A stretch of 64,000 bases of DNA from a virus: the IMG/VR virus record IMGVR_UViG_3300032240_003128. One strand, given 5' to 3'. How positions within the stretch are numbered: position 1 is the stretch's first letter; every line of letters begins with the position of its first letter. This document shows positions 506 to 61,224 of this stretch, piece after piece. Both the position numbers and the translations under genes were made by a program. The notes beneath the pieces were generated by a model, which saw nothing but the letters and a program-made list of their open reading frames with translations, was not told where the DNA came from and did no database searches.

Positions 506-724
506 ATGAAAACATTTACCGATTGGGCATCTGATAACAAATTAAGGATTCCGACTGTTAACGAAAATGCCAAACGTGGTGGTATCGCTCCATACGCTTA
601 TCCAGATGCTTACGCAAGAGGACAGTATCCTTCTAACTATTTTACTCCAATTGCCGCTGATGCTCCATTTAAGCTCCAAGCTAGCAAAATTGCAAGGGGT
701 GGTCCTAGAGAATTGAACGCTTAA
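506..724 (+). CDS. Small putative internal head protein (CTS-like N-terminus), paralog of the next gene
   Basis: MKTFTDW...TVNE| then GIAPYAYPDAY core; SD AGAGGT; TAAATA at 468-473. Confidence 0.75.
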   Translation: MKTFTDWASDNKLRIPTVNENAKRGGIAPYAYPDAYARGQYPSNYFTPIAADAPFKLQASKIARGGPRELNA

Positions 725-952
725 TGAATTTTGTTGAATATTTGGAAAAAAAATCCAAATATTTTAGAATCAATTAGAAGATCTGGTATAGCGCATTGGG
801 CTTATCCCGATGCCTATATTCGTTCTCATTACACAGCTGGATATTTCATGCCAACAGCCGCTGATGCCTTGTTTAAGATGGGTCCGAAAGTAGATGAGAA
901 AAAAGTAGATCATGGACAATTCCGCTACACACATCATGATCGCATAAATTAA
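724..952 (+). CDS. Paralog of 506..724; its N-terminus (ATG 724) is out of frame across an A8 tract
   Basis: GIAHWAYPDAYIRSHYTAGYFMPTAADALFKM aligns with the upstream gene; ATG 724 encodes MNFVEYLEK in a different frame. Confidence 0.7.
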
Positions 953-1293
953 GGTGAAGGATTTGTTTTTTTATTTAAAAGTTTCTTTCTTTCCTCGATA
1001 ATAACTGAATCTTTTTCTGCTGGTATTGAATCAAGATTGTTGTGATAATAACCCCAAAATTCAGTATTTGATATATTTTGGATGATCAATCCAATTTTAG
1101 TATATTTGAAAATAATTTCTTCTACTCTTTCTTGAGAAATATTTGTTTCTTTTGATATTGCCGAAACGCTACGCCAATTCTTATATTTTTTATTTCTTGC
1201 TAAACTAATGAAAAATTTCTTCTCTTCTTCGCCTTCTGGAGTACCTTGGGGATAAATTTCGTACCATTCTGGAATTTTATTTTTATTATTCAT
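949..1293 (-). CDS. Hypothetical protein, possible winged-helix domain
   Basis: WRSVSAISKETNISQERVEEII looks HTH-like; start reassigned to MNNKNK. Confidence 0.55.
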   Translation of the reverse strand: MNNKNKIPEWYEIYPQGTPEGEEEKKFFISLARNKKYKNWRSVSAISKETNISQERVEEIIFKYTKIGLIIQNISNTEFWGYYHNNLDSIPAEKDSVIIEERKKLLNKKTNPSP

Positions 1294-1308
1294 GACTATT
1301 ATATAGTT

Positions 1309-1665
1309 ATGAATAATACAGAACTGCATATGTACGAAAATCATCACACCTATGATTTAATGTTGCCTAAACCGGCATACAAAAATCTTACAATCATCAA
1401 GCCGAAAAGTAAATTTTTTGCTGATAAAAGTTTTCTAGAATATGTAAAAGTTGGAATGATTCGATATATCGGACCACACAAACCGGAGGTAATCGTGGAA
1501 CACAAGCTCATTCTTGACCAACCGCCTATTGTTACCAACGAAGGTAAGGTTGAACATGTTGCAGCAGGTAAGAAGAAGATTTTGAAGGAAGGCGAAGGCG
1601 AAAAGCTTGACGAAGTCCTTCTTGTCGAAAGTCCTTCTGCCGGAATTAAAATTATTACTGATTGA
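1309..1665 (+). CDS. Hypothetical protein
   Basis: ORF track; start moved to avoid overlap with the divergent gene. Confidence 0.6.
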   Translation: MNNTELHMYENHHTYDLMLPKPAYKNLTIIKPKSKFFADKSFLEYVKVGMIRYIGPHKPEVIVEHKLILDQPPIVTNEGKVEHVAAGKKKILKEGEGEKLDEVLLVESPSAGIKIITD

Positions 1666-2104
1666 ACTTAAGTTTTCTAAAATTAAGTACAAAACGATCT
1701 TTTTTTCCTTCTAAGCTTTTCATCATGTCCCTCAATTTGAGGGACAAAATTTTTGCATTTATCGGATTTTCAAGACATTCGGTATTTTCTACAGAAACAG
1801 TTTTGTGCAATCTATTGTAAAATCCCTTTGACATTGTAAAATGATCTTTTTCATGATTGTAAGCAATCATTCCTACCCATTCACCATCATCCCAATTTCT
1901 GGAAGCAACAATTAGTCTTAAAGGTTTTTCAGAAAACACAAGCTTTACATGATAATTCATTTTTTTCATTGCTGCGCTTATGTAGCCAAGCATTATTTTT
2001 GCATAAGATAAAAGGCAATCATCTTTTGTAGTATCAAAATTTACCTCAACAGAATATCTTGTATTCTGCGATCCTTCATTAAATCTTTGATTTTTATTAT
2101 CCAT
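1655..2104 (-). CDS. Hypothetical protein
   Basis: 149-aa ORF directly after the gp13-like gene. Confidence 0.7.
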   Translation of the reverse strand: MDNKNQRFNEGSQNTRYSVEVNFDTTKDDCLLSYAKIMLGYISAAMKKMNYHVKLVFSEKPLRLIVASRNWDDGEWVGMIAYNHEKDHFTMSKGFYNRLHKTVSVENTECLENPINAKILSLKLRDMMKSLEGKKDRFVLNFRKLKFNQ

Positions 2105-2107
2105 TTT

Positions 2108-3034: not shown

Positions 3035-5170
3035 ATGAAACTTTTTAGTGAATATTACGCTGGTCACATTAATCATAGTTTTTTTCTATTTGGTGATGAT
3101 GATATAAAATTTCTTGAACAATTCCCAACTGACTTGTGGAACAGAGCTATTAAAAGACGTTATTTTTACGATTTGCCTAACGCACTTTTGAAAAGAGAAG
3201 AAGCTAGAGAAAATCAAACATTATCAAATTTGACAGATTTGCAAGGCGAAGCTACTACTGCCAAGTATTACGAATTAATAAACATTGAAGCGCAAAGAAT
3301 AGAACAAAATTTAAGACGAGTTTACAATGCAACAAATGCAAGATCTCGTCACAGAATAAGCCAAATGGCTTATAATAGTGCCAAAAATCAAATAGATTCC
3401 ATGCTTGATCAAAGACAAGATAGAGGTGGGGTATGGATGAGGATAAGACCAGTAACAAGAAATTACGTTTTCGTTATAAAAGGTAGACACGGAGCAAAAG
3501 AAACAACTATCAGGAAAGTAAAATGTTATATTCCAGAACTTGTCAAGAGAATTGAAGGACCAAAGGGATCAAGCACAAAGGGTTATGATCTAAGCAAAAT
3601 ACAAAATTTTGAACCTTCTACTCCAGAAGAAGATCAAAATGGAGGATGGAGAACTTTAGGATTTTATTGCCCTCAAAAAGATGTGATAGTTGATAACTTG
3701 CAGTCATGGCTTGGCTATGGTTCTCAAGGATTGCTTGATGCGCCCGGAAGCATTGAAGATCAAGAAACTCATAGACGTAGATCTAGAGAAGAATATGTGT
3801 CAAACAAACAAGCTAGAGAAGAAATACTTGACGATACGATTTATAAGAATCCATTAAGAAATTATTATTCAAATTACATTAACAGGCTTAAAAGAATTCT
3901 TAGAGCAGAAGAAGACATTGATGATAATGAATTGGAAATTTTGTATAATAGATTTTCCAGAATGAACCCAGACGACGAAACCAGACATGCTTATAGAAGA
4001 GCTTTGCGTGGAAACTTTCCAGATCGATTAGAAGAAATCGTAGGCACTACTGAAGCACATGAATTGGATCACGATCAAATTATAGAAATGATTCAAGCAT
4101 GTGTTGGGGTAAACATGCCTTTTGAAAGAAATCTAGTTAATGCTTTAGCAGATATCGATTTGATAACACATAAAACACCGCATTATTTTGATGAAACAGA
4201 AGTTGACACGGAAGGAAAGCCAAGGAAATTTTATGTTGATCCTGAAACAAGTTCACAATACAGGGTGTCTACAAGACCAAGAACGCCAGAAGAAATTGGA
4301 TTGGGTAGAGCTGGAAATGTGCCTGAATTAAAACCGGGGAAAATTTTGTTTCACGTTGAAACAGTAAGAAGAAAATTACAAGCAAAACTGGCTGACGCTC
4401 AAACAAGACTAGAAGAGTTGCGAGCAAATAGAGAAAGAATGACTTCAGAAAGAAATTTAGCCAGAAATGAAATTGCGATGGAAAGAGTTCAGAGTGAAAT
4501 CGACCAAATCGATGATTTAATTGCTGCTGACAGTCCTAACAACATATTTAATCTTCGTGGTGTTGGTTATCATTACAACATGGGCGATGTGCTAGAAAAT
4601 CCAAATATTTCTCCCGCAGGAAGATCAAGGCAAAAAATATTTTTGCAGTTTGATAATGAAGCACAAATTCCAAGCATATTAGACAAAAGAGACAGAGTGC
4701 TGGGTGGAGGTATATATCCACAAAAAAATACACCTCAAGCAAAAGGACCAGCATCAAGCAATGTTGTAAACGCTACGACTATTTTAAACCATTATATCAA
4801 TGATGACAACAATTTAATTCCTATTATAGCAGATTTTATTAGTAAAAATTATGATGCAGATCTTAACATTCTGTTCAAAGTTTTTGCGAACAGCCAAGGC
4901 AATCCAACAGATAACCGTACTTACAGATCGTTTGTCGATCTTATTAAAGATCAATGTTTAAGAAATATTGGAATTTTTGACATCGATAATCCAAGTGATA
5001 TAGTCATGCAAAGATTGATAAAAAAGGTTATTTTGCACACTTGCAATCGTCTTGTAGAAAAAGAATTAGGCGATGCTGGGACTATTAGACAAAGACAAGG
5101 CGAAGATGCGAATGCTGGTGAAGTTAGAAGAAGAATAACAGATATGTTTAGAAAAACTGAACATCACTAA
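3035..5170 (+). CDS. Large hypothetical protein with CTS-like N-terminus and coiled coil
   Basis: MKLFSEYY start with GAGGA SD; Arg/Glu-rich; no family recognised. Confidence 0.75.
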   Translation: MKLFSEYYAGHINHSFFLFGDDDIKFLEQFPTDLWNRAIKRRYFYDLPNALLKREEARENQTLSNLTDLQGEATTAKYYELINIEAQRIEQNLRRVYNATNARSRHRISQMAYNSAKNQIDSMLDQRQDRGGVWMRIRPVTRNYVFVIKGRHGAKETTIRKVKCYIPELVKRIEGPKGSSTKGYDLSKIQNFEPSTPEEDQNGGWRTLGFYCPQKDVIVDNLQSWLGYGSQGLLDAPGSIEDQETHRRRSREEYVSNKQAREEILDDTIYKNPLRNYYSNYINRLKRILRAEEDIDDNELEILYNRFSRMNPDDETRHAYRRALRGNFPDRLEEIVGTTEAHELDHDQIIEMIQACVGVNMPFERNLVNALADIDLITHKTPHYFDETEVDTEGKPRKFYVDPETSSQYRVSTRPRTPEEIGLGRAGNVPELKPGKILFHVETVRRKLQAKLADAQTRLEELRANRERMTSERNLARNEIAMERVQSEIDQIDDLIAADSPNNIFNLRGVGYHYNMGDVLENPNISPAGRSRQKIFLQFDNEAQIPSILDKRDRVLGGGIYPQKNTPQAKGPASSNVVNATTILNHYINDDNNLIPIIADFISKNYDADLNILFKVFANSQGNPTDNRTYRSFVDLIKDQCLRNIGIFDIDNPSDIVMQRLIKKVILHTCNRLVEKELGDAGTIRQRQGEDANAGEVRRRITDMFRKTEHH

Positions 5171-6763: not shown

Positions 6764-7528
6764 ATGAAGACTTTTTTTGAAATGTATAGCTTGATTCAAA
6801 ACAAGAAGCTAAGAGAGCAAGATGCAAGCATGGGTGGTCCTCCTCCCATGGGTGGTCCCGGTGGCGGTATGGGTGGTCCTCCTCCCATGGGTGGTCCCGG
6901 TGGTGGCATGGGTGGTCCTATGGGTGGCATGGGTGGTCCCGGTGGTGGCATGGGTGGACCTCCTCCCATGGGTGGACCCGGTGGTGGCATGGGTGGACCC
7001 GGTGGCGGACAACCTCAACAAAACAAAAACCAAAATGATAAACAATCTCCTGAAGATGAAGATGATGATTCAAATGTAGCTCCAAGCGAAGGTGGAGAAG
7101 ATGAAGAAACAATAGAATCTTCTATCGAAAAACTAAAAGATCAAGTTAAAAATATGAAATCAAAGGATGAAGATAAAGGTCAACAATATGAAGATCTTAT
7201 CAAGCAAATTGAAGATCTAGTTAGCAGTATTAATGGTGATGACGAAGACGAAGAAGAAGGGGAAGAAGGAGAAGATGAAGAAGGAGACGAAGAAGGAAAT
7301 AAAGGCAAAGAAAAGTCATCAAATGTAGGCGAAATGGGTGGTCCACCTATGGGCGGCATGGAAAACATGGGTGGTGATCAAGGCGGCGGTGGCGGTCAAA
7401 GCGGTGGAGACATGGGTGGAGGCTTTGGCGGCGGTATGGGTGGTGGCGGAATGGGCGGCGGCATGGGAGGCAGCGGCATGGGTGGCGGTGGCGGCACTGG
7501 TATGGGCGGCGGCTACGGCGGCGTTTAA
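6764..7528 (+). CDS. Gly/Met/Pro low-complexity protein with acidic helical middle and CTS-like N-terminus
   Basis: MKTFFEMY...KLRE| followed by GGPPPMGGPGGGM repeats. Confidence 0.8.
   Translation: MKTFFEMYSLIQNKKLREQDASMGGPPPMGGPGGGMGGPPPMGGPGGGMGGPMGGMGGPGGGMGGPPPMGGPGGGMGGPGGGQPQQNKNQNDKQSPEDEDDDSNVAPSEGGEDEETIESSIEKLKDQVKNMKSKDEDKGQQYEDLIKQIEDLVSSINGDDEDEEEGEEGEDEEGDEEGNKGKEKSSNVGEMGGPPMGGMENMGGDQGGGGGQSGGDMGGGFGGGMGGGGMGGGMGGSGMGGGGGTGMGGGYGGV
6830..7008 (+). repeat. Coding tandem repeat (ATGGGTGGT.. units encoding MGGPPPMGGPGGG)
   Basis: Directly visible GC-rich repeat. Confidence 0.9.
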
Positions 7529-23704: not shown

Positions 23705-24334
23705 TTATAACATTTTATAACGATTGTTTTGAGTTTTGATGTTTGGTTTTTTTCTTTCTTCAATCAATTTAGTTTTAATTGATTTGGTAGACGAAACATC
23801 CGATAAATTGTAGTTAAATTGTTTTGCATTAAGAAATATATTGATCTCGTTGAAAATTTCTATTGGATTGGCTATTAGTTTTTCATTTTCAATAGTCATG
23901 AAATTTTTAACTTTATCTTTAAGCTTCATGGCATTGGAATAGCATGTATCGTATGAATTTGATTTTTCATCATGCGATGATTTTCTAAATTTAGGATTTA
24001 CATATGAATTATGTGCTGACCAACTTTTTATAATGCTGTTTTTGTCTTTCAAGCAATAAAGATAATAAGAATTTGGCATATTTTCAATCAGCCAATCTGT
24101 ATGATTGTTTTCGATCCAAGGTCTTTTTAGGATAACTCTATTTTCTTTTTGAGTTAAAGATTCTATTTTTTGAGCATTTGCGTTTAATAAAAAGTCATTT
24201 TCTAAAATGAATGCCATTGATCCGTTATTGAATAAAACAAAATCAGGATGTTGGCGTATTACATGGGCTACAATTGTGGTCCCTGAATGAGCCATACCGC
24301 AAATAATTATTAATTTTTCATTACCTTTTATCAT
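23705..24334 (-). CDS. Sulfotransferase-family protein
   Basis: IICGMAHSGTT PAPS-binding loop, LKRP. Confidence 0.75.
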   Translation of the reverse strand: MIKGNEKLIIICGMAHSGTTIVAHVIRQHPDFVLFNNGSMAFILENDFLLNANAQKIESLTQKENRVILKRPWIENNHTDWLIENMPNSYYLYCLKDKNSIIKSWSAHNSYVNPKFRKSSHDEKSNSYDTCYSNAMKLKDKVKNFMTIENEKLIANPIEIFNEINIFLNAKQFNYNLSDVSSTKSIKTKLIEERKKPNIKTQNNRYKML

Positions 24335-24813
24335 TTTTGCGGCATTTGACTAGTAGGTGCTGCTTGAGACATGTCAAAACCGCTTGCAGGAGGCATTTCA
24401 GGTGCAATGTCCTGCGTTGCCACATCCTTGGGTTTTTCCATTTCAGCGGGCTTTTTGGTGATTTGAAAGGCATTAACAGGAACGCCCATCTTATTAACCA
24501 CTTGTTGCAATACAGCAATTGTGCTTTTAAGAACATTTTCTATGTTATCGTTCTCATCTATAGACTTTGCCAAAGCAATAGCACATTTTTGTAAAGACTT
24601 AAGAAATTTACGATTTTCATTTCCCCAGTGACCTTGCAAAATGCCTCTGCATTTATTAACAATTATTTGACTGTAGCGAACTAAATTTCTTGTACCTATT
24701 TTATTGACTTCGTCTGCTAGTTCTTGAGAAGAATTGAGAACATCGCCAATTTCTTTAGCTAAATAAACTTTGTTTTCGTTCAAAACATATGTTCTAAAAT
24801 TAAAATTTGTCAT
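24331..24813 (-). CDS. Hypothetical protein with CTS-like N-terminus
   Basis: MTNFNFRTYVLNE|; TAAATA 5 nt upstream of ATG. Confidence 0.7.
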   Translation of the reverse strand: MTNFNFRTYVLNENKVYLAKEIGDVLNSSQELADEVNKIGTRNLVRYSQIIVNKCRGILQGHWGNENRKFLKSLQKCAIALAKSIDENDNIENVLKSTIAVLQQVVNKMGVPVNAFQITKKPAEMEKPKDVATQDIAPEMPPASGFDMSQAAPTSQMPQK

Positions 24814-31506: not shown

Positions 31507-31857
31507 TCAAAGATAAGCTTCAAGAGGATCTTTTTGTTTAATCTTGTCTTTGAAATATTTTTCTAACAAATCCCAAGCATTTAACTTTTTAATATCGGTT
31601 ATTGTTGTTTGAGTTGCTCCACCTGCGCCGCCGCCAAGACTACCACCTAAGCCGCCTAAATCACCACCGGGAGGAGGGGGCATTCCGCCACCGCCTAAGC
31701 CGCCTAAATCACCACCGGGAGGAGGTGGTGTTGCGCCGCCACCTAAATCGCCACCGGGAGGGGCACCGGGAGGGGCACCGGGAGGAGCGCCACCAGCTGG
31801 TGGTGCATCAGCTTCAGTAAAAAAATATTTTTTTCTAAATTGATGAATTGTAATCAT
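31507..31857 (-). CDS. Small Gly/Pro low-complexity protein with CTS-like N-terminus
   Basis: MITIHQF...FFTE|; PPPGGDLGG repeats. Confidence 0.75.
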   Translation of the reverse strand: MITIHQFRKKYFFTEADAPPAGGAPPGAPPGAPPGGDLGGGATPPPPGGDLGGLGGGGMPPPPGGDLGGLGGSLGGGAGGATQTTITDIKKLNAWDLLEKYFKDKIKQKDPLEAYL

Positions 31858-31875: not shown

Positions 31876-32307
31876 ATGAAAACATTTTGGGAATATTTAC
31901 ATAATGAAGAAATTGCTCCTATTGAAGCAAATCCTTCTCCTTCTGAACCGCCACCTGCTGTTTCCACACCGCAGCCTGCAACTCAAAGCTTTAGACCAAA
32001 GTCAAAACCTTGGAAAGCTAAGAAAAATGAAATTATGACATTTTGGAGATCTCTTGCTCCGAATTTACCTTTGCAATTAAAAGCAATAGATAATATTCAT
32101 AAGGGAAGTACATTACAGCAGGATACTTTGAGAATAACCGGAACAAAGGAATTTATTACGACTGTTTTATCAAGATTGAAAGATTTTATAATTTACGAAA
32201 ATCCAAACACGAAACTTGTCTTAGATTACAGACAGAATGCTAAAAGTTTGAAGCCCGGCGAGAAAAACAGTTATTTATTTTACCTTAACGTCAAGAACAG
32301 GAAGTAA
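31876..32307 (+). CDS. Hypothetical protein with CTS-like N-terminus
   Basis: MKTFWEYLHNE| then Pro-rich linker. Confidence 0.75.
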   Translation: MKTFWEYLHNEEIAPIEANPSPSEPPPAVSTPQPATQSFRPKSKPWKAKKNEIMTFWRSLAPNLPLQLKAIDNIHKGSTLQQDTLRITGTKEFITTVLSRLKDFIIYENPNTKLVLDYRQNAKSLKPGEKNSYLFYLNVKNRK

Positions 32308-32553: not shown

Positions 32554-33972
32554 ATGGCTACAAGCATAACAGTTAATAATGATTTTTGCCAATTACAAAC
32601 GGACAACAAACAATTATCTGATTATTTAATTGCGAACTTAAAATTCAGGCAAAAAGGATATCAGTTTTCACCACTTTACAAGTCAAAAAAGTGGGATGGG
32701 TTTGTCAATTTTTTCTCAGCTAAAACTGGAAAATTTCTTTCTGGAATTCTTCCAGAAATTTGCATGATTGTTAAAAAGTTTAATGAAGTTTACGAATTAA
32801 ATGATTTGAGAACACCAATCAAATTTAAATTCGATAAAATCGATGAGAATTTTCTGCAATATTACAATGAAGACATGAACACCAAGATTGAACTGACTGA
32901 TTATCAGGTAGATCTAGTTAATCAAGCTATTAAGCATAAGCGTGGGATTATTGTTGCTCCGACAGCATCTGGTAAAACATTTCTTATGTCTGCGTTGCTA
33001 AAAGCTTTAGGAGAGCATGAGCCAACTTTAGTTTTGCAAAATAGAAAATCCTTGGCTTCTCAAAATTATGATGAAATTTCTAGATGGGGATTTAAGAAAA
33101 TAGGATCTTGCTGGGGTGGAAACAATAATCCAAACACAATTACTGTAGCAACAGCACAGTCGATTCATCATTTAGAAAACAGATTGGATAAGATACGAGT
33201 TGTTATAGTCGATGAAGTTCATGATATGGTGTCTGAAACGGCAAAAGACATTTACAAAAAGCTAAAAAACGCTGTAATTCGAATTGGTCTTTCTGCAACA
33301 CCGTTTAAGCATGGAGAATCTGACAAAGTTCACAAGTATATGGTTAAAGGATTTTTTGGTCCAATTATTAAAACAAACACAACTTCAACAGGAAGAGTAA
33401 CAACGGCAGATTTGCAGCAAAAAGGAAGATTGTCACAATCAAGGTGTATTTTTTATAAAATCGACAAGCCAGATTTGGAATTATCAATCTACAGCGAAGC
33501 CGTTGATTTAGGAATTGTAAACAATATGCATTTGCACAACAAAGTTGTCGATATAACCAATGCTCTTTCTGGAAGAACTTTAATCTTAGTCGATAGAATT
33601 GCGCATGGTGATCAATTGAAAAAGTTAATTCCAACAGCTTGTTGGATAACAGGTAAAGATGATAATGATTCAAGAAAAGAAGTCATCACAATGCTTCAAA
33701 ATTCTAAAACAAGTTGTATAGCGATAGCCACACAGCAAATATTTAATACTGGAATTAATGTTAAGATACACAATTTAATCAATGCTGCTGGTGGGCAGGC
33801 TGATCACTTGATCATTCAGCGAATGGGTCGTGGTTTAAGAACAGCTGACGATAAAAAAGAAGTTTTGTATATTGACTTTATGTTTGAAAATAACACATAT
33901 CTTAAAAAACACTCAGCAAAAAGAGTTAAGATTCTGGAGAAGGAGGGACACTCTCTTCAGTTTCTCGATTAA
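32554..33972 (+). CDS. uvsW: SF2 DNA helicase, UvsW-like
   Basis: KWDG, PTASGKT, DEVH, SAT, QRMGRGLR. Confidence 0.9.
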   Translation: MATSITVNNDFCQLQTDNKQLSDYLIANLKFRQKGYQFSPLYKSKKWDGFVNFFSAKTGKFLSGILPEICMIVKKFNEVYELNDLRTPIKFKFDKIDENFLQYYNEDMNTKIELTDYQVDLVNQAIKHKRGIIVAPTASGKTFLMSALLKALGEHEPTLVLQNRKSLASQNYDEISRWGFKKIGSCWGGNNNPNTITVATAQSIHHLENRLDKIRVVIVDEVHDMVSETAKDIYKKLKNAVIRIGLSATPFKHGESDKVHKYMVKGFFGPIIKTNTTSTGRVTTADLQQKGRLSQSRCIFYKIDKPDLELSIYSEAVDLGIVNNMHLHNKVVDITNALSGRTLILVDRIAHGDQLKKLIPTACWITGKDDNDSRKEVITMLQNSKTSCIAIATQQIFNTGINVKIHNLINAAGGQADHLIIQRMGRGLRTADDKKEVLYIDFMFENNTYLKKHSAKRVKILEKEGHSLQFLD

Positions 33973-34237
33973 TTTCTTTAAAAAACAAATTAAATAAATC
34001 AATAAGCTTAGAAGATCTGCTTTTTACAATTCTTTTCACTTCGGTTTTTTCCGCATCGTTCATTTTGGTGTACTTGTTCCAAGTTTTTAATCTTTGTATT
34101 ATTTTTTTAGGATCAAAAACATTGATATTGGCATACCAACCTTTTTTGTCATCTATGTTTAATTGAAAATGATTTATAAAAGCATCTTTCTTTGTTTCGT
34201 CTTCTACGCTTTCTAAGAATTGTATGAAAGTAATCAT
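33926..34237 (-). CDS. Hypothetical protein with CTS-like N-terminus
   Basis: MITFIQFLE|; TATATA 5 nt upstream. Confidence 0.7.
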   Translation of the reverse strand: MITFIQFLESVEDETKKDAFINHFQLNIDDKKGWYANINVFDPKKIIQRLKTWNKYTKMNDAEKTEVKRIVKSRSSKLIDLFNLFFKEINRETEESVPPSPES

Positions 34238-34267: not shown

Positions 34268-35077
34268 ATGCATTTTATTGAATGGGCTGGCAAATCACCT
34301 GACGTGATTTTTGGATTTGATAAAGGAATTCCATTAAAAAGACAAAATGTTTATAATGAAGAACCAATAGAACCTTTAAAAATTGAAAGCGTAATTGAAG
34401 AAATTGTTAATTTAGGCAAAATAGGGATGAAAGACCCTGTAAAAGATTTTGGTGCTATTGTAAATTATGGTAATCCTAGTCAAGTAGGATCTTTGCAGAT
34501 AAAATTTAGTCCACTTGGATCTTGTCGTGTTACGATTATGCGAAGAATTAGTGATTTGGAAGGTGATTTGACTTGGATTACTCGTTATGCTGTTCCTGTT
34601 ATTAATGATTATGAACATTTGACAGCCGAGGATATATCTACTGAAAAAATGATTGCTGTCAGGGTTCATGAATTGGCAGACTATATTGATAAAACACCAT
34701 TAGAAACACCTAAAAACAAGTATGAAAAGCTAGAAGAATTAGTTGTCATGATTGCTTCTAACATGAAACTTAAGCATCCTTCTGTGATGAATTTTCAAGG
34801 GGTCATGAGGCAAAATGACAACACTTATATAATTTATTTTTCATATAATGGATATGGAATTGAAGCACCGGGTCAAAGAAAAGTAAATCAATTTAATGTT
34901 TATATTGAATTTATCAAAGATAAAGGATTGATAAGATCATGGGGTGCAGAACACTCTGCACCCCACTTGTTATATAACTATGAACCACAACCGCCTGAAT
35001 GGGATGAATATTTTTCTTGTGATCAAAATAAAAATGAAATTGTTACAATTCTTGAGAACATTTTCAAGACTTATTGA
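34268..35077 (+). CDS. Hypothetical protein
   Basis: 269 aa; GGGAG SD; MHFIEW start. Confidence 0.75.
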   Translation: MHFIEWAGKSPDVIFGFDKGIPLKRQNVYNEEPIEPLKIESVIEEIVNLGKIGMKDPVKDFGAIVNYGNPSQVGSLQIKFSPLGSCRVTIMRRISDLEGDLTWITRYAVPVINDYEHLTAEDISTEKMIAVRVHELADYIDKTPLETPKNKYEKLEELVVMIASNMKLKHPSVMNFQGVMRQNDNTYIIYFSYNGYGIEAPGQRKVNQFNVYIEFIKDKGLIRSWGAEHSAPHLLYNYEPQPPEWDEYFSCDQNKNEIVTILENIFKTY

Positions 35078-36155: not shown

Positions 36156-36197
36156 AATGCCAGTTTGTATTCATTACCCTGAAAAACCAAACCATGC

Positions 36198-36452: not shown

Positions 36453-36481
36453 TTGAAAAGAAATATGCATACATTTTTAGC

Positions 36482-49424: not shown

Positions 49425-50396
49425 TTATCCGTAATTTGCTCGTGTATTTGGACTTCCTGTTTTTACAACTCGATCATAAGCATCCATTAATTCTTTATAA
49501 ATTTCAGATTTTTTAGATTCGGTATTTACACGGTAATAAAAATCTAACAGACTATCAATATCAGTATTTTTGCTTCTCAAATCACTTATAAGTACCTCAG
49601 AAGCAGCCAATAAAAGTTTAATTTGGTGAGAGCTAGAATTTTTTTCTTTTGCAAACGCATTGCACCATTCATCATTATTAAGAATATAATGAAAAATTCT
49701 TTTTTCATCTTCTGGCAAAAAAGCAACAAGTTGCTTTGCATATTCTTTCAAACGATCTACAGTTAAATCAGCTATTTTAAACAATGATTCTTTGCTCATA
49801 TAATTTTTTATTGCTGCAAGACGCACACCCATTTCTCTGGGATCGTTTAAATATTGAAACCAAGCACTCGAACCTTTTTTGGTATCATCTTGTTGTCCCG
49901 GAGGAAAAAAACGAACTGCACCTTGGCTTCTATTAAAGGGGGTTTCGCCTTGTTGAGTTGTATGTCGTAATTCGTGAGCTAATGTTTCTGCTCCATCTTT
50001 TGTTAATTTTCCATCTGATGTGGGAGTAGGAAGTTCAGCAAAAGCATTATTAGGCATAACCATAGTTTTTGAACTTCTGTTAAAATATGCTCTAGTACTT
50101 GCTCCCATAACTCTTGTCAATCCGCTTCTTGTCACAACAAGCATTCTTACTGGTTTGTCAAAAAATTCTTTAGATGTTGCAAATCCTATATCTCCCTGAC
50201 TAGGTTGTTGTAATTTATTAAAATCTGCATCCCATTTTTTAACGTCAAATTGCGCATTTCTTATCAGTTGTTTTGGTATTACATTTTTTTGAATTATTAT
50301 TTCATCAGGTCTATATTCTAGATTATTTTGTTCATCTTGTTGTTCTGTAAAATATCGTGGATAATTTGTTTTTAACCATTCAGCAAAATTTTTCAT
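49425..50396 (-). CDS. Zincin-like metallopeptidase with CTS-like N-terminus
   Basis: MKNFAEWL..YFTE|; LAHELRHTTQ and YLNDPRE. Confidence 0.7.
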   Translation of the reverse strand: MKNFAEWLKTNYPRYFTEQQDEQNNLEYRPDEIIIQKNVIPKQLIRNAQFDVKKWDADFNKLQQPSQGDIGFATSKEFFDKPVRMLVVTRSGLTRVMGASTRAYFNRSSKTMVMPNNAFAELPTPTSDGKLTKDGAETLAHELRHTTQQGETPFNRSQGAVRFFPPGQQDDTKKGSSAWFQYLNDPREMGVRLAAIKNYMSKESLFKIADLTVDRLKEYAKQLVAFLPEDEKRIFHYILNNDEWCNAFAKEKNSSSHQIKLLLAASEVLISDLRSKNTDIDSLLDFYYRVNTESKKSEIYKELMDAYDRVVKTGSPNTRANYG

Positions 50397-51062: not shown

Positions 51063-51428
51063 GTGAAGACTTTTATCCAATATATAACTGAAGAAAGAAA
51101 AAATTCAGACTTCATGACAAGTCTGAAACTTTTTAATATTGACCCTAAAAATGCAGAACGAGCTATTGAAAAATCGCCATCTGTTTTTGCACAGGCTCTT
51201 TATGGCGATGACGAAGTAGGAGCATCTGCCTTTGATGTAAAAAAAATCGGCAAGAATTACATGATGAAAAACAGAAATGTTTTTGGTAATTTGACTTACA
51301 AAGATCACATCCCATCAAAACTACAAATGAAAACAATAGTAACGCCTACCTTCGTTGATTATCTTAAAACACAAGGTTTAGCAGGATCTGAAAAATACAA
51401 TGATTTTCTAAAAGGTAAAAAGGCATGA
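51063..51428 (+). CDS. Hypothetical protein with CTS-like N-terminus (GTG start)
   Basis: MKTFIQYITE|. Confidence 0.7.
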   Translation: MKTFIQYITEERKNSDFMTSLKLFNIDPKNAERAIEKSPSVFAQALYGDDEVGASAFDVKKIGKNYMMKNRNVFGNLTYKDHIPSKLQMKTIVTPTFVDYLKTQGLAGSEKYNDFLKGKKA

Positions 51429-51634
51429 AAGGCTTCAAGAAATGGCTCCAAATTGATGAAGTAGCTACTAGCACAGCAGATGTGGCTCATTTCTCATTGC
51501 CTATCGGTGCTGGTATGATTAGTAGAACATTTCCCCAGTTTTTTAGTGTCGGGCAGCATGGATTAGGTGGACCAGTTCAGCAATTAACTGATACAGATTA
51601 TGTTAAACCAAAAAGGAAAAAGAGGCGATCATGA
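51425..51634 (+). CDS. Small protein with CTS-like N-terminus and basic tail
   Basis: MKGFKKWLQIDE|...KPKRKKRRS. Confidence 0.7.
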   Translation: MKGFKKWLQIDEVATSTADVAHFSLPIGAGMISRTFPQFFSVGQHGLGGPVQQLTDTDYVKPKRKKRRS

Positions 51635-52098
51635 TAACATTTTATGATTTTTTAGCTGAACAAGATGCACCATTACCACCGCTAGGACAACCACAGCAGC
51701 AACAAGGACAGCAGCAAGGTCAACCACAGCAGCAACAAGGTCAGCAGCAAGGTCAGCAACAAGGTCAACCACAGCAGCAGCAAGGACAGCAGCAAGGTCA
51801 ACCGCAGCAAGATAATATTCTTGTCCACAGAGGTATTCAATATGACAAGGCACAAGTAAAAAAATATATATTCCAAGTTTATGATGACTTATATCAAAAA
51901 GAAAATAAGCTTCAATTTTTTGTAATGGATATGTTTGAAAATGATCCAAAACGTAATGAAATTCAACAAAAAGTAGCAGCCGAACACATGAAAATTCATG
52001 ATATTATTGAAGATATTAAAGCGTATTATCAAAGTGTATTACAGCCAAACACACCAAAAGAAACGAGAAAGTGGCGTTTCGGAGATACTAAAAAATAA
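51631..52098 (+). CDS. Gln-rich protein with CTS-like N-terminus
   Basis: MITFYDFLAE|; QQQQGQ(P) repeats at about 51685-51810. Confidence 0.75.
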   Translation: MITFYDFLAEQDAPLPPLGQPQQQQGQQQGQPQQQQGQQQGQQQGQPQQQQGQQQGQPQQDNILVHRGIQYDKAQVKKYIFQVYDDLYQKENKLQFFVMDMFENDPKRNEIQQKVAAEHMKIHDIIEDIKAYYQSVLQPNTPKETRKWRFGDTKK

Positions 52099-52115
52099 AA
52101 CAATTGGAGTTAATA

Positions 52116-52673
52116 ATGAGTACATTCACAGATTTTTTAAAAAATAAAAAAAAATTTGTTGTTCAAGAACAAGGCGTAATAGGAGGTCCATTAGTTGATG
52201 GAGCACTTGAAGGATTAGGCGTTAATGATAAAATGCGAGGTGTTGGTAAAGCTTTAGGACAAGGAGCCAAGGACACTATTGCAGGAGTTGGTAAAGCTTT
52301 AGGACAAGGAGCCAAGGACACTGCTGTAGGAGTTGGAAGAGCAGTGTTTGGTCAAAATCAAGATTTTACTCGTAATAATATGGCACAACTTGGTGTTGGC
52401 GAAGATACAAGAGAAGTTAGAAGGAAGTATTCAGAACTCCAGAATGCTCTTGCTAATTATTACAATGTTATTAAAAGCAGTCCTACTTTGAGAAAATCTA
52501 AACAAGGTCCAGCAATTGCCGAGCGTATTCAAAAAGTGTTGGAAGAAATTGAAGATGATTTAGAAACAACTTATAACATGTATCAACAATCAGAAAAAAG
52601 AATTCGACCACTTAATCCGATTAATGATCCAAATTTAGCAAATCCTCAAAGAGGATTTATTAGACCAGAGTGA
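52116..52673 (+). CDS. Protein with CTS-like N-terminus and Gly/Ala amphipathic repeat
   Basis: MSTFTDFL..VQE|; exact 36-nt repeat at 52242-52277 and 52287-52322. Confidence 0.75.
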   Translation: MSTFTDFLKNKKKFVVQEQGVIGGPLVDGALEGLGVNDKMRGVGKALGQGAKDTIAGVGKALGQGAKDTAVGVGRAVFGQNQDFTRNNMAQLGVGEDTREVRRKYSELQNALANYYNVIKSSPTLRKSKQGPAIAERIQKVLEEIEDDLETTYNMYQQSEKRIRPLNPINDPNLANPQRGFIRPE

Positions 52674-55870: not shown

Positions 55871-55871
55871 G

Positions 55872-56654: not shown

Positions 56655-57980
56655 TTAGAATAGTTTGTTTTCTGTAATTAATAACCACTCAGAAAAAGTA
56701 ATATTTTTATTTTCTTGAAGTTTTGACAAAAGTTTACCACTTCCTTTACCTTTTTTATCACATAATTCTGGATTATTACTGCAAAATTCGTCTACAGATT
56801 TATTTATTTGCGATAAAGATAAAGCGATAATTTTCCAATTTTCACTACTTGTTCTTAATCTCCTATCAAAAGCCGGATAGTGGTTTTCAATAGGGTTGTA
56901 AATATTTGCCACACGTCTAAAATCTTCAATCGCATCATTTGTAAACGCATCATCTGCAAAATCGCATTGTCTTGACATGAAAGCTTCAATAATTTTGGTT
57001 AACAAAAGATTCCAATTTTCATTTCCTAAATAATTAATATTTTTTCTGTGTTTTTTAAATATTTTTTTCTGACCATTTTCCACTTCTGCATGTCTATAAA
57101 GTCTTTGTATAAGCTTAAATGCGTTAAAAATTGGCTTATTTGGTACATCTTCTCCATTATCTCTAAAGTATTGTTCTATGTTTAATATAAGTTTATTTAA
57201 ATTTTGCATAAATTTAAAATTGGTTATTCCGCCTAGAATTGGAATACTAGGTTCAGGAGGTGTTGAAGGAGGAGTATTGCTTGCAGCGACTTCTTCATCT
57301 GGAGGTGGTTTTGTGACAGAAGAAGGTGAGCCAAATTCTTTATCTGAGGCTGGTGCTGCAATAGATGAAACTACGCCTAGTCCTTGGATTTGATCTGGAG
57401 TCACATTAAATTTTTCTGCATCTAATCCATTTATTCTATTTGGAGCGACATTGAATCTTTCTGCACCTAAAGAGATATTTTTTCTACGTTCTTCAACTTC
57501 TTTAGCATGTTCTTCAGCAGCTTGTTTTTTGGCAGCATTTTCTTTAGCTTCTTCTTCAGCACGTTTTGATTTTTCTTTAGCATCTTTTTCAGCAATACGT
57601 TCTTCTTCGGTTTGTATTAGTTTTTCAAGTTTTATTATGTTTAGATTTATAGTCGGCTCTTTTTTTTGTTTGTCTCCTTTTCCTTTGTAAGATTCACTTA
57701 GTATTATTTTAAAATTATATTTTAAATTTCTGTAGATGCTCTCTGCTCTTGCTTTGTCTATAGGCAATAGTTTTCCTAAAATTTTGCTTTGATACTTTTC
57801 GCCTATCAACTTGTTAGCATATCTTTTAAAAGCTTGGTCAACTTTGAAAACAAAATTTTGTTCTTCTTCTTGCAAATTAACACTGCCAAACATATTCCTT
57901 ATGAATTTGGTAAAGTCTTCATTTATGTTTTCCAGTTTATGTTCTTTTTCTTTTAAGAAATTGCTAAAATTTTTGCTCAT
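56655..57980 (-). CDS. Large protein with CTS-like motifs at both termini
   Basis: MSKNFSNFL..INE| and C-terminal ITFSEWLLITE. Confidence 0.75.
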   Translation of the reverse strand: MSKNFSNFLKEKEHKLENINEDFTKFIRNMFGSVNLQEEEQNFVFKVDQAFKRYANKLIGEKYQSKILGKLLPIDKARAESIYRNLKYNFKIILSESYKGKGDKQKKEPTINLNIIKLEKLIQTEEERIAEKDAKEKSKRAEEEAKENAAKKQAAEEHAKEVEERRKNISLGAERFNVAPNRINGLDAEKFNVTPDQIQGLGVVSSIAAPASDKEFGSPSSVTKPPPDEEVAASNTPPSTPPEPSIPILGGITNFKFMQNLNKLILNIEQYFRDNGEDVPNKPIFNAFKLIQRLYRHAEVENGQKKIFKKHRKNINYLGNENWNLLLTKIIEAFMSRQCDFADDAFTNDAIEDFRRVANIYNPIENHYPAFDRRLRTSSENWKIIALSLSQINKSVDEFCSNNPELCDKKGKGSGKLLSKLQENKNITFSEWLLITENKLF

Positions 57981-57997
57981 TTGTATCCTTAAATAAA

Positions 57998-58402
57998 TCA
58001 AGTTAAATCGACATGTCTAGAAGTTCCTTTCCCCAAAATATCATATGCTTTTTTCATTATTTTAAAGTTGAGAGAATTGTTTAGTAAATTGTGTATATTG
58101 CCTGATAAGAATTTTCTTATATCTTTTTGTTGAGGTGGTGTAGCTCCAGTAGGCTTAACTCTTACTAAATTTTTAACAAAATTGTCAATAGCAATATTTA
58201 AACGCTTTTCCAATGCATCTTCGGCTTCATGCATGTCGGCAGTTCCTGCGCTAGTGCCAAGACCTCTTTTGGCACCAGCAATAAAACCGCCAACTCCTCT
58301 TAGGATGTCTTCAAGGGTTTCGTTATAATTACAATCTTCTATTTTAAATCCTTTTTGTTCTAGAAATTTATTAAATTTTTTTCTTCTAAAATTGAAACTC
58401 AT
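57998..58402 (-). CDS. Small helical protein of the tandem paralog set
   Basis: KFNKFLE; Gly/Ala helix; shared helix motif. Confidence 0.7.
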   Translation of the reverse strand: MSFNFRRKKFNKFLEQKGFKIEDCNYNETLEDILRGVGGFIAGAKRGLGTSAGTADMHEAEDALEKRLNIAIDNFVKNLVRVKPTGATPPQQKDIRKFLSGNIHNLLNNSLNFKIMKKAYDILGKGTSRHVDLT

Positions 58403-58422
58403 GTTACACCTTTCATTTGATG

Positions 58423-58866
58423 TTATGCGATAAAATCAATTAACGCTGTATCTATTTTTTTCTTAAATTCTTCCATGTTTGTTTTTATTATTTTGTTTAA
58501 ATTTGTTGATAAATTAATAGAAAAGTTTTTAAAATGTGTTTCTAATTTATTTTTTAATAACTTTTCGGCTTCTTTAATTTTAGTGGTTAAAATTTCTTCA
58601 ACTTCACTTTCATCATCAGCATCAAGAAGAGATCTACTTAAAGCATCTACAGCAACATCTTTAGCTGCCGAAGCAGCAATACTAGCTCCAGTACCAATAC
58701 TTGGTAAATATTTACCAAGTGATTTAAAGGTATTTCCTGCCTTAAAGGTATTTCCTGCCATTGATGCGACTCTTGGAATTGCTCCTACTAATCCTGCATA
58801 TTCATTGATTTCAGAGTTTGCACTCTGAATTTTTCTATCTTTTATAAAATCGTAAAATGTTTTCAT
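58423..58866 (-). CDS. Small helical protein of the tandem paralog set, CTS-like
   Basis: MKTFYDFI..INE|; 18-nt tandem duplication at 58724-58759. Confidence 0.75.
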   Translation of the reverse strand: MKTFYDFIKDRKIQSANSEINEYAGLVGAIPRVASMAGNTFKAGNTFKSLGKYLPSIGTGASIAASAAKDVAVDALSRSLLDADDESEVEEILTTKIKEAEKLLKNKLETHFKNFSINLSTNLNKIIKTNMEEFKKKIDTALIDFIA

Positions 58867-58878
58867 TTTTTTCCTTCA

Positions 58879-59175
58879 TCATGGGAAATATTCACGCACA
58901 GCATAATCGATCAATTTTCTTATGTTGGCATCAAAAGCATCTTTCATGTCATTTATTTGCATTTTGCTATAGCCAGCTTTGTTTAAGCTTGCTTCAAAAC
59001 TTTTCCATGCAGTGTTTATTTCCGTTATCAGGGTGTCTTTTGCCGCATCTTTGTTATCTGTGCCTGTAGCAGAACTGTAACCAGCCATGCCACCACTAAT
59101 TGCTCCACTGATACTTCTGTAAGGGTTCATAATAAAATCGAACATACCTTCATTCAACTTTTGTTTTTTATTCAT
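58879..59175 (-). CDS. Small helical protein of the tandem paralog set
   Basis: KLNE|GMFDF; Gly/Ala helix. Confidence 0.7.
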   Translation of the reverse strand: MNKKQKLNEGMFDFIMNPYRSISGAISGGMAGYSSATGTDNKDAAKDTLITEINTAWKSFEASLNKAGYSKMQINDMKDAFDANIRKLIDYAVREYFP

Positions 59176-59207
59176 TTCGTACCCCTTTGCTTAACTATAT
59201 TTATTTC

Positions 59208-60578
59208 ATGGACACTTTTTTTTCTTGTTTTTTCGAAAAACTTTATAAATCAAATTTAAAAATCAACATTATTGGAGATGTGTTGATTGATGAATATTAT
59301 CAGGTAGATGTTGATAGAATTAGTCCAGAATTTCCCATTCCTGTTCATCGTTCTTTTGATGACAAGCCAAATAAAATTTTTTGCGGTGGTGCAGCAAATG
59401 TCGCAGCACAATTTAAAAATTTTAATGTAGATGTTAACCTTATATCTCTTATGAATCCGCAGGCAGAAAAAATTTGCAATTTAAATGGTATTAATACAAA
59501 TTATTCAATCATAGACTCTAAATTTGTCAATTCAAAGAAAAAAAGATTTTATAAGGATTCTCATCCATTGATCAGATGGGATGTAGAAAAACCACAATTA
59601 GGAATTTCTAATATTGATTATTATTTAAATGAAATAAAAATACCTGAAGCTGATATTAACATTTTTTCTGATTACGACAAAGGTTTGTTTTCAACAAATT
59701 GGCACAAGAAATATTTAAAACAAAGCAAATCACTTATTGATCCCAAGAAAAACCTTAATATTTGGGAAGGATGTTATTTGTTTAAACCTAATGCCGTTGA
59801 AGCAAAAAGATTTGTCAATAAGGAAAAAGTTGAAGATCAGTTGAGATGGCTTCAAGCTTTGCTAGGATGTAATAATGTTGTTATTACAAATGCAGGGGAA
59901 TGTGTAGATGCAATCGATGATAATGAAAAAATATATCATGTAACACCTAGCAAGAAAGTAATAAAGCCCGAAAGTGTGATTGGTGCTGGAGATGCATACA
60001 TGGCTTTCTTAGCCATGTCTTTAGGTGTAGGTGTTGATCTATTAGAATCTTTAAATATTTCATTTGAAGCTGGCATTAATTATGTTGCTAATCGTTATAA
60101 TAAACCTTTAAATCCATCAGATTTTTTCGTTGAAGACAAAGTGATTAACAATCCTGCTGTATTGAGAAATAGGGATTTTAGCCTAGTGTGGACTAATGGC
60201 TGCATGGATCTTACACATTACGGACACATATCATCTTTAAAACAAGCAAAATCTTTTGGTGACAAACTTTGTGTTGGTGTTAATTCAGATGAGAGTATAG
60301 CTAAATTGAAGGGTGAAAAAAGACCAATCATACCTTTGTCTCAAAGAATTGAAATGTTAAAAGCAATAAAATATGTAGATTTTATTTTTGTTTTAGAAGA
60401 AGATTTTCCTCAAAGTGTCATTGAATTAATTAAACCAAATGTTTTGGTTAAGGGTGAGGATTGGCGAGGTAAAAAAATTGCCGGTGCCGATGTTGTTGAT
60501 AGAATTGAATTCATTCCTTTAGTTGAAGGTCTATCAACAACTAGCATTATAAATAAAATTATTCATGCTTATGGATAA
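59208..60578 (+). CDS. hldE: Bifunctional heptose kinase/adenylyltransferase (HldE/RfaE-like)
   Basis: RISPE.P.PV, GGAANVA, SDYDKG, GAGD; TNGCMDLTHYGH, LKG..RP, VKGED. Confidence 0.9.
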   Translation: MDTFFSCFFEKLYKSNLKINIIGDVLIDEYYQVDVDRISPEFPIPVHRSFDDKPNKIFCGGAANVAAQFKNFNVDVNLISLMNPQAEKICNLNGINTNYSIIDSKFVNSKKKRFYKDSHPLIRWDVEKPQLGISNIDYYLNEIKIPEADINIFSDYDKGLFSTNWHKKYLKQSKSLIDPKKNLNIWEGCYLFKPNAVEAKRFVNKEKVEDQLRWLQALLGCNNVVITNAGECVDAIDDNEKIYHVTPSKKVIKPESVIGAGDAYMAFLAMSLGVGVDLLESLNISFEAGINYVANRYNKPLNPSDFFVEDKVINNPAVLRNRDFSLVWTNGCMDLTHYGHISSLKQAKSFGDKLCVGVNSDESIAKLKGEKRPIIPLSQRIEMLKAIKYVDFIFVLEEDFPQSVIELIKPNVLVKGEDWRGKKIAGADVVDRIEFIPLVEGLSTTSIINKIIHAYG

Positions 60579-60687
60579 GTTTTGATTTAACAAATGGACA
60601 GTAATGAAATTGTCCAATGATTGTTGAAGTAACACCAACCAAAAAACCCAAAATAAAAGCGACTGTCAACGTAATGAATGTTTTCAT
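60559..60687 (-). CDS. Unannotated 42-aa single-TM protein
   Basis: MKTFITLTVAFILGFLVGVTSTIIGQFHYCPFVKSKLIHKHE; AGGAGG SD. Confidence 0.6.
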   Translation of the reverse strand: MKTFITLTVAFILGFLVGVTSTIIGQFHYCPFVKSKLIHKHE

Positions 60688-60715
60688 TTTTGAGCCCTCC
60701 TAAATAAATAGAGAT

Positions 60716-61081
60716 ATGTTATCATTTAAACAATTTTTAAATAATTTAGAAGAACAAGCTGCCACTACTCCAGCTACTGGTGTTACTCCTGCTGCAAGTA
60801 CAACTCCAGCTACATCTAATCCAACTGCTGCAACTGCTGCCACTACTAATGCATCTGCTAAAACACAGCAAGTACCTCCAGCGACCAGAAGCAAGCTTGA
60901 TGCTGCTGCTCAGAAGAACGCAGCTGCTATGCGGCTTTATCAGACAGGTAAAACAAAAGAAGCGGTTGACACATTGAGAAAAGATCCTAATTTTCAATTA
61001 GCAATGCAAGATTTAACCAAAACAAGTTCTCCAGCTAATGCTTCTCAGTTGGTAAATTTTGCTTTGGGTGGCAATTCATGA
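60716..61081 (+). CDS. Ala/Thr/Pro-rich protein with CTS-like N-terminus
   Basis: MLSFKQFLNNLEE|; TAAATA 5 nt upstream. Confidence 0.75.
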   Translation: MLSFKQFLNNLEEQAATTPATGVTPAASTTPATSNPTAATAATTNASAKTQQVPPATRSKLDAAAQKNAAAMRLYQTGKTKEAVDTLRKDPNFQLAMQDLTKTSSPANASQLVNFALGGNS

Positions 61082-61224
61082 CATTTAAAGATTTTTTAAA
61101 AATTGATGAGGCAAATGGTCATGGCGGTAAACGTCATAACTCATTTACTGTTTTAAGGATGAATTATCGTAATCAACAACCAGTTTCTATTAAAAAACAA
61201 ACAAAAAAACTATTTAAGATTTAA
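61078..61224 (+). CDS. Unannotated 48-aa basic peptide with CTS-like N-terminus
   Basis: MTFKDFLKIDE|ANGHGGKRHNSF...; ATGA and TAATG overlaps at both ends. Confidence 0.75.
   Translation: MTFKDFLKIDEANGHGGKRHNSFTVLRMNYRNQQPVSIKKQTKKLFKI

Follow-up and report, generated by a model that had tools for sequence, protein, structure and literature searches.

A leader resembling the T4 capsid-targeting sequence on otherwise unrelated proteins of an uncultured huge phage

A common leader at gene starts and its match in T4

The IMG/VR virus record IMGVR_UViG_3300032240_003128, a stretch of 64,000 nucleotides here called the window, has 33% GC and about 90 genes. About 17 of these encode otherwise unrelated orphan proteins that bear a common N-terminal leader, or tag, of the pattern M-(K/I)-T-F-x-(E/D/Q)-(F/W/Y)-(L/I), with hydrophobic-x-E within 9-21 residues and often Q as the next residue. 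The initial annotation of the window had quoted 20 such N-termini and likened them to the capsid-targeting sequence (CTS) of the phage T4 internal proteins (IPs); all 20 were found, with the same coordinates and strands. The window also encodes a contractile tail with sheath (10975-13308), two tube paralogs and baseplate hub, and a replication and recombination block with PolA-like, DnaB-like, dCMP deaminase, gp32-type single-stranded DNA-binding, UvsX-type and UvsW-like proteins. The tail, replication and nucleotide-metabolism proteins that can be recognised all score as untagged, as had been claimed. No tRNA genes were found in the 64 kb.

In the frequency check that had been proposed, the regular expression ^M.{1,3}F..[FWY] matched 18 of the 90 gene starts, with 1.4 expected. 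The controls gave 2 matches in 392 internal Met sites and about 15 in about 730 non-gene ATG open reading frames (ORFs; about 2%), and internal-Met control rates were 0.2-0.4%. When genes were not selected in any way, 19/89 had F at position 4 (p=5e-8 against a background of 4.9%) and 18/89 had T at position 3 (p=2e-7). A position-specific scoring matrix (PSSM) was built from 16 window tags, a score of 6 bits or more being taken as positive. Fifteen window genes reach this level with the training tags included; in leave-one-out scoring 12 of the 16 tags remain at 6 bits or more and the other four score 4.9-5.8, the T4 95th percentile being 2.75. Three matches to the loose regular expression that lack the full motif and score below 6 bits were left out (37848, MKIFQLF; 59208, MDTFFSCFF; 30371, Mre11-type, MAKFLLF). 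The same applies to 60559-60687, which shares only the MKTF start, then continues with a membrane helix and likewise lacks the full motif and 6 bits.

Chance was ruled out by the internal-Met sites and non-gene ORFs as controls and by the per-position tests on unselected genes. The wider explanation, chance or a translation-initiation bias towards AT-rich codons such as AAA ACN TTT after ATG, is scarcely credible. K at position 2 and similar residues are enriched at the N-termini of all phages tested, but the aromatic i/i+3 pair exceeds every control by more than 10-fold, the tag persists at 58% GC and it is 5-10 times denser than in the other AT-rich T4-like phages CP220 and HTVC008M.

The matrix, trained on window tags only, was scanned over all 282 called T4 N-termini. 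Four scored above 6 bits, gp61.1 (19.5), ipI (14.6), ipII (8.7) and ipIII (8.7), the next best being 5.3 and the median -6.6. Because the three T4 proteins with an experimentally defined CTS are all in the top four of a matrix blind to T4, the tag is identified with the T4 CTS motif, in agreement with the initial annotation. The leaders of gp67, gp68 and Alt were missed in the same scan. The T4 internal proteins have only the N-terminal leader in common; it directs packaging and is removed by gp21 (PMC3012670, PMC5694885). The CTS of IPI, IPII and IPIII is credited to Mullaney & Black 1996 (through PMC5694885). Ip1-3 are injected and block different GmrSD enzymes (PMC12373910), and at least 10 Ips are known in the T-evens (PMC3012670, PMC5694885, PMC12373910).

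The highest T4 score belongs to gp61.1 (NC_000866 18966-19130, 54 aa, MKTFKEFIKED...), whose start is more CTS-like than those of ipI-III; by its leader, gp61.1 may be an internal protein so far unrecognised. The homolog in RB49 (11412-11588) starts MIGFKQFVEE...

The tagged genes and the architecture of their products

Four of the tagged genes (506, 724, 3035 and 6764) lie within the tail-gene region. Gene 506..724 (+) encodes 72 aa, with the leader MKTFTDW...TVNE before a basic mature peptide (leave-one-out 16.7 bits); a CTAAATA box is found upstream, and orthologs, including that of a relative with 58% GC, keep the tag and V/I-x-E. It is followed by a frameshifted paralog, 724..952 (+), where the leader MNFVEYLE... 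stands in a 17-codon ORF ending after an A8 run (746-753) and the remainder, with ...ILE, continues in the frame of 731-952. Orthologs are intact in seven relatives (MKFIEYLEKRD..FE, single frame). The split is a +1 frameshift in the A8 homopolymer, for which a sequencing error, a pseudogene or slippage are possible origins. The 254-aa product of 6764..7528 (+) is acidic, Gly/Pro/Met-rich and disordered, with the leader MKTFFEMY...LRE followed by QD. The tag and x-x-E-Q-D are kept in 7 relatives and the low-complexity tract after the boundary varies. The protein is extremely repetitive (pI 4.1), with a repeat length that varies among relatives, and the position of its gene beside tail genes is kept across the clade.

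In the middle of the window, 24331..24813 (-) is a variant member of 160 aa with an offset tag, MTNFNFRTYVLNE, that falls below the anchor window of the PSSM; orthologs read MTDFNFRE[FY]VLNE and an ATAAATA box lies 6 nt upstream. The leader of 31507..31857 (-) (116 aa, Pro/Gly-rich) is MITIHQF...FFTE followed by ADAPP, with Ile in place of the anchor Phe; the boundary [FL]-T-E-A-D-A-P is kept in the relatives G004 and G005 and is succeeded by a low-complexity tract. Gene 31876..32307 (+) encodes a basic protein of 143 aa with the leader MKTFWEYLHNE (leave-one-out 12.3 bits), of which orthologs keep MKTFWEY[LI] before a variable Pro-rich linker. The 103-aa product of 33926..34237 (-) starts MITFIQFLE (12.5 bits) and its G005 ortholog MITFIQFME. 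Gene 49425..50396 (-) encodes 323 aa, with the leader MKNFAEWLKTNYPRYFTE, then QQ, a linker and a conserved domain. Its start is MKNF and not the upstream ATG, as in many homologs.

The remaining members form tandem clusters at 51063-52673, 56655-59175 and 60716-61224. The first cluster begins with 51063..51428 (+), which has a GTG start and encodes 121 aa with the leader (M)KTFIQYITE (12.3 bits; MKTFIQYINE in the G004 ortholog). Next are 51425..51634 (+), a basic peptide of 69 aa with the leader MKGFKKWLQIDE, whose G004 and G005 orthologs keep the tag and an [IL]-x-E-V boundary, and 51631..52098 (+), 155 aa, with the leader MITFYDFLAE and then a Q-rich repeat tract (16.5 bits). The latter leader is the closest window match to MKTYQEFIAE of T4 ipII/ipIII. 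The cluster ends with 52116..52673 (+), 185 aa, with the leader MSTFTDFLK...VVQE followed by QG (14.9 bits) and a G004 ortholog that keeps ...LVQE-QG.

The second cluster is an operon on the minus strand. Its first gene, 58879..59175 (-), encodes 98 aa with MNKKQKLNE only and no aromatic core, and is a weak member; an ATAAATA box lies 23 nt upstream. The leader of 58423..58866 (-), 147 aa, is MKTFYDFIKD...EINE (16.5 bits). In 57998..58402 (-), 134 aa, a paralog of 58879 and a variant member, the core KKFNKFLE followed by Q is set back to residues 8-16. The last gene, 56655..57980 (-), encodes 441 aa with the leader MSKNFSNFLKE...INE (12.5 bits). Its orthologs have an F-V-x-F-L-V-E core 14-21 residues in, and no family match was obtained in PHROGs or Pfam. 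The third cluster consists of 60716..61081 (+), an Ala/Thr/Pro-rich protein of 121 aa with the leader MLSFKQFLNNLEE followed by Q, which has MLSFKK[FY]... orthologs and CTAAATAAATA immediately upstream, and 61078..61224 (+), a very basic peptide of 48 aa with the leader MTFKDFLKIDE (16.3 bits). G004 and G005 orthologs of the latter keep the tag and the mature peptide after it (NGHGG-type start).

Two further genes appear to be doubtful members because the motif is kept but the cleavage site is not conserved. Gene 3035..5170 (+) encodes 711 aa starting MKLFSEYY (6.6 bits). In its orthologs conservation of the N-terminus extends well past the tag, and the E of FLE (residue 28) is not kept; it has no Pfam or PHROG match. 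Gene 34268..35077 (+) encodes a globular protein of 269 aa with a tag-like start, MHFIEW. In 14 homologs F3 and W6 hardly vary, and no conserved hydrophobic-x-E follows them. The AlphaFold2 (AF2) model, a confident one with a predicted local distance difference test (pLDDT) of 80, has a disordered N-terminus and no fold match in PDB (Foldseek).

The sequence [LIVFM]-x-E is found within the first 24 residues in all 15 tagged genes and in 33/74 untagged window genes, with a similar pattern in relatives, and most tagged proteins have a further hydrophobic-x-E site 9-21 residues in. Gln is the P1' residue in 10/40 sites, against a background of 3%. The 49425 family is the most informative for the layout. 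Among its 38 homologs, with identity down to about 30%, most keep M-x-x-F-x-E-W-L...[LF]-x-E-Q; after this boundary there are 10-60 hypervariable low-complexity residues and then the conserved domain. The AF2 model (pLDDT 86.5) shows a helix for the tag, at residues 4-11, and disorder at the boundary, residues 16-23. Since the leader and the Glu boundary are conserved and the adjoining linker is hypervariable, in the 6764 family as well, the layout of tag, site, variable linker and domain looks to be the architecture expected of a removable propeptide.

The claim that the mature parts are unrelated was borne out by all-against-all BLASTP, which gave two paralog pairs only, 506/731 and 57998/58879. 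The tagged proteins are all hydrophilic, with no transmembrane segments or signal-peptide features. Some are small and basic (61078, 51425, 506) and others are dominated by tracts of Gly/Pro/Met (6764), Pro/Gly (31507), Gln (51631) or Ala/Thr/Pro (60716). PHROGs gave nothing at E below 0.001 for 19 tagged proteins and Pfam nothing above cut-offs for 10. Enzymes had been named among the cargo; no enzyme could be assigned with significance from Pfam, PHROGs or fold searches with two AlphaFold models, and this part of the claim was not supported. The hints of a zincin metallopeptidase in 49425 are weak. They are an HELRH motif, whose H and E are not among the positions invariant or nearly so in 19 homologs, a Pfam eCIS_core match below cut-off (E 0.0015), weak zincin rows in Foldseek against PDB (E > 0.2) and a wide VIA search with Z < 6. 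In a protein atlas, 49425 matched only viral clusters without a name, apart from weak leads to LPD23 and SprT.

An amphipathic helix of this kind could also be a label for a partner outside the capsid, such as a chaperone or translocase, a membrane, a tail or baseplate assembly site or an adaptor of regulated degradation. The position of 506, 724, 3035 and 6764 among tail genes, the top T4 match gp61.1, which is not a known head protein, the 34268 family with a motif and no cleavage site, and the several AAA+ chaperones and translocases of group 2.2 jumbo phages (PMC7824862) are in its favour. Capsid targeting is, against this, the only experimentally defined function of the motif and three of the four T4 matches are bona fide internal proteins. 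The conserved Glu boundary with its variable linker fits a removable propeptide, and the lack of transmembrane and signal-peptide features also speaks against a non-capsid partner, which is considered unlikely.

Relatives, tag density and upstream boxes

Megablast gave no near match to the window in the phage collection. In IMG/VR, 46 loci are related to it, with sheath identity from 99% down to 52%; these relatives come from freshwater samples, and the relative contigs of 75-245 kb are 15-48% complete (CheckV). The GenBank entry LR756511.1 ('uncultured phage', 595,163 bp) is syntenic with the window at 349-487 kb; 48 of the 90 window proteins have a match there, with a median identity of 41%, and its major capsid protein (MCP) is 76% identical to that of the relative G006. 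On account of the synteny and protein matches to this 595-kb genome, and of the related contigs, the window belongs to a clade of huge, uncultured phages.

A T4-type head module is found in G002, G003, G006 and LR756511.1, with gp17-type terminase, gp20 portal, a coiled scaffold-like gene and a Peptidase_S77 gene, the gp21-type prohead protease (E about 1e-26). In G006 the protease gene lies at 70785-71456 and the scaffold gene at 71459-72349. The MCP of the relatives' module is of the Gp23 family (E 7.5e-84). Tags and S77 protease occur together in these four genomes, and the gp21-like protease to be located according to the initial annotation was found in relatives and not in the window. In three relatives a small tagged gene lies between the portal and protease genes.

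Two other features of the relatives' head genes were observed. LR756511.1 has a second, diverged Peptidase_S77 paralog at 242621-242989 (-) (304-aa frame, E 3.5e-9), distant from the head module, which recalls the protease paralog reported for SPN3US. The gp20-type portal gene of G002, at 118489-121065 (L075:3489-6065), contains an Intein_splicing domain (Pfam, E 1.8e-10).

The tagged gene within the head module bears on a reading where prohead targeting is real but most tagged proteins supply material for the scaffolding core or inner body, to be degraded or used in packing, and are not effectors directed at the host. This would hold above all for the long disordered proteins rich in Gly/Pro/Gln. 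T4 gp22, gp67 and gp68 are likewise loaded and cleaved (PMC5694885), several tagged proteins are long, of low complexity and acidic, and PHROGs and Pfam revealed no effector-like domain. The leader, however, matches the CTS of the IP type and not the leaders of gp67, gp68 or Alt, many tagged proteins resemble T4 IPs in being small and basic, and the diverse set changes from relative to relative, as is typical of accessory genes. A predominance of core material is accordingly rated as improbable.

Relatives at 33-58% GC retain the tag, and orthologs in G004, G005, G006 and IMG/VR loci keep their leaders. At 58% GC, G002 still has such leaders, among them MRDFNEFLIE, MRFRDFIEQ and MLTFKKFMMAE, and also a 506 ortholog, leader included; of the 20 listed genes only 506 and 731 were matched in G002. 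Within the window the leader codons vary freely at their synonymous positions, and the genes have different upstream regions. Because the tag persists at 58% GC and synonymous codons vary, it is a protein-level and not a nucleotide signal. The 58%-GC tags, the synonymous variation and the differing upstream regions rule out two nucleotide-level explanations, a start-codon context rich in AT and a 5' cassette present in repeated copies.

The leader might also be a historical remnant, left over from a conserved 5' cassette at which new genes were born by duplication or recombination in the manner of the T-even ip loci, and without function in most copies. The two paralog pairs, the three tandem clusters of tagged genes in the window and five tandem tagged paralogs in G003 could be so explained. 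Protein-level conservation over 33-58% GC with free synonymous variation contradicts it. The leader is also kept down to about 30% identity beside a hypervariable linker, and therefore appears to be under purifying selection, which makes a remnant very unlikely. The G003 paralogs, at 169016-177625 (-), encode 565-583 aa with a tag-like leader (M-x-x-F-K-E/D-F...) and then a conserved GLEHRAFNKF block.

Tag density was counted as genes at 6 bits or more, with a matrix tuned to the window, so that distant relatives are under-counted. The cultured phages gave 4/282 (1.4%) in T4, 5/276 (1.8%) in RB49, 5/234 (2.1%) in S-PM2, 9/211 (4.3%) in CP220, 2/204 (1.0%) in HTVC008M and 3/394 (0.8%) in KVP40. 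The window, as training set, has 15/90 (17%), and the relatives have 14/116 (12%, G004), 12/122 (10%, G005), about 8/94 (8%, G006), about 13/309 (about 4%, G003) and 33/1174 (2.8%, LR756511.1). The AT-rich subclade thus has a density of 8-17% of genes versus 1-4% in the six cultured T4-like phages. In LR756511.1, 27 genes reach 8 bits or more, against 0/3062 internal-Met controls. A model-free count of F at position 4 with [FWY] at position 7 gave the same ranking, with 14.6% in the window, about 9% in G004 and G005 and 1.5% in T4 and KVP40. The claim that there are more tagged genes than the three of T4 was upheld, with 15 in the window and 33 in LR756511.1 against 4 in T4 at 6 bits or more. 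By these counts CTS-like leaders are present at a low level across the T4 superfamily and are strongly expanded in absolute number in the huge-phage clade, with an expanded density also in the AT-rich subclade.

The Campylobacter phage CP220 was the densest of the cultured T4-like phages scanned. About 7-9 of its hypothetical proteins have the leader and then an x-x-E site, e.g. MKFSDFLEE-Q and MTFTEFINE-A, at the loci 35925-37275, 59622-60116, 112245-112667 and 116257-117815; the annotation of the tagged genes is 'hypothetical' throughout.

Two classes of upstream words are enriched in the subclade, ACTATATA-type boxes and [AC]TAAATA boxes. The T4 late promoter is TATAAATA, which the [AC]TAAATA box resembles in sequence. 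This box stands before the tail operon (9751), the baseplate hub (17638), 506, 24331, 49425, the 58879 operon and 60716. In four genomes, among genes with at least 35 nt of upstream spacer and with orthologs counted separately, an [ACT]TAAATA box was found before 9/16 tagged and 31/204 untagged genes (p=4e-4).

The other class, the ACTATATA(A/T)TAG-type box, abuts the ATG without a Shine-Dalgarno sequence, often in divergent gene pairs. Examples are found upstream of 949(-), 5167(-)/5802(+), 15011(-)/15514(+), 33926(-)/34268(+) and 48504(-)/48758(+), and CTATATA is 18-fold enriched upstream of genes in the subclade. These boxes are candidate promoters of leaderless mRNAs.

Function of the leader and comparison with known systems

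The leader probably acts as a T4-type CTS. The amphipathic leader would dock the protein onto the scaffolding core during prohead assembly, a gp21-type S77 prohead protease would cut after Glu and the leader peptide would leave. The mature protein would stay in the very large capsid, and most of it would probably be ejected into the host with the DNA. The lineage would have attached this leader to many unrelated, mostly orphan proteins, which are small and basic, long, disordered and of low complexity or, in a few cases, globular, and its packaged protein set would be far larger than that of any phage studied so far. Docking, cleavage, head retention and ejection are steps that we infer from sequence. 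The cargo reading of the initial annotation was supported in respect of motif identity, the head module and protease of the lineage, site pattern, unrelated mature parts and number, and was not supported in respect of enzymes.

Several points weigh against a T4-type CTS. The top T4 scorer, gp61.1, is not a known virion protein, and the motif may lack full specificity. The excess of hydrophobic-x-E is partly built into the motif (F-x-E), and the putative sites have F and V at P3 and often Q at P1', unlike the classical T4 (L/I)-x-E-A. A share of 10-17% of genes is unusually high for head cargo. The head genes are absent from the 64-kb window, the protease being known from relatives with 68% sheath identity and more distant ones. 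As to expression, the late-box statistic treats orthologs as independent and no gp55 homolog was found in five relatives (an inconclusive single-sequence search with T4 gp55), and for these reasons the boxes are only suggestive of late transcription of the tagged genes.

The T4 IPs are the closest known parallel. MKTFKEF... and MKTYQEFIAE in T4 correspond to MKTFYDFI... and MITFYDFLAE in the window; in both systems the leader of 10-21 residues ends with hydrophobic-x-E and the mature parts are otherwise unrelated, and both belong to T4-superfamily phages with a gp20/gp21/gp22/gp23-type head module, here deduced from the genes of relatives. In contrast to T4, with 3 (perhaps 4) tagged genes and ip genes at two loci, there are about 17 in 64 kb, scattered on both strands, and at least 27-33 in the 595-kb relative. 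The window sites take F or V at P3 too and often Q at P1', and many cargos are long disordered low-complexity proteins. The window lineage has not been cultured, and its replication relies on another set of polymerases.

T4 Alt, gp67, gp68 and gp24 also enter the prohead core, where gp21 trims them after (L/I)-x-E (PMC5694885), but their leaders differ in sequence and none of the four was picked up by the window-trained matrix. The phages phiKZ, SPN3US and 201phi2-1 have giant capsids with dozens of internal proteins and a gp21-related protease that cuts after x-x-E (PMC5694885). Their propeptides are mostly over 100 residues, with S/A/G-x-E sites, in a different lineage and with no shared short portable tag known. 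The P1 Dar and P22 ejection proteins are head-packaged and enter the host along with the DNA, and anti-restriction roles are described for some (PMC9024508, PMC8402733). They are incorporated by specific protein-protein hierarchies, with no T4-type leader, and have no homology to window proteins.

The mechanism is already known from T4. What appears to be new, from the genomes compared here, is its presence in a distant uncultured lineage of roughly 0.5-0.6 Mb, a 5- to 10-fold larger tagged set, the prevalence of disordered cargo and a slight shift in the site (P3 F/V, P1' Gln). No description of such an expansion was found in the searchable literature, subscription literature being outside the search, and capsid-targeting tags are not mentioned by Iyer et al. 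2021 on group 2.2 jumbo phages (PMC7824862).

It can be proposed more tentatively that the CTS serves as a general address label by which dozens of unrelated, often disordered proteins may be brought into the giant capsid, as a starter proteome and/or as an inner-body-like condensate, and that injected proteomes might be read from metagenomes by the 10-residue tag alone. If the leader does act as a T4-type CTS, the T4 capsid-targeting mechanism would be ancient and would extend to the entire T4 superfamily, down to its uncultured members of about 500-600 kb. The leader would predict from sequence alone, in metagenomes, which proteins are packaged in the virion and probably injected, and these otherwise invisible orphans would be prime candidates for anti-defence and host takeover. 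A giant capsid so rich in long disordered cargo would have direct bearing on the packing and function of internal proteins, and natural variants of the tag could widen the T4 protein-delivery toolkit.

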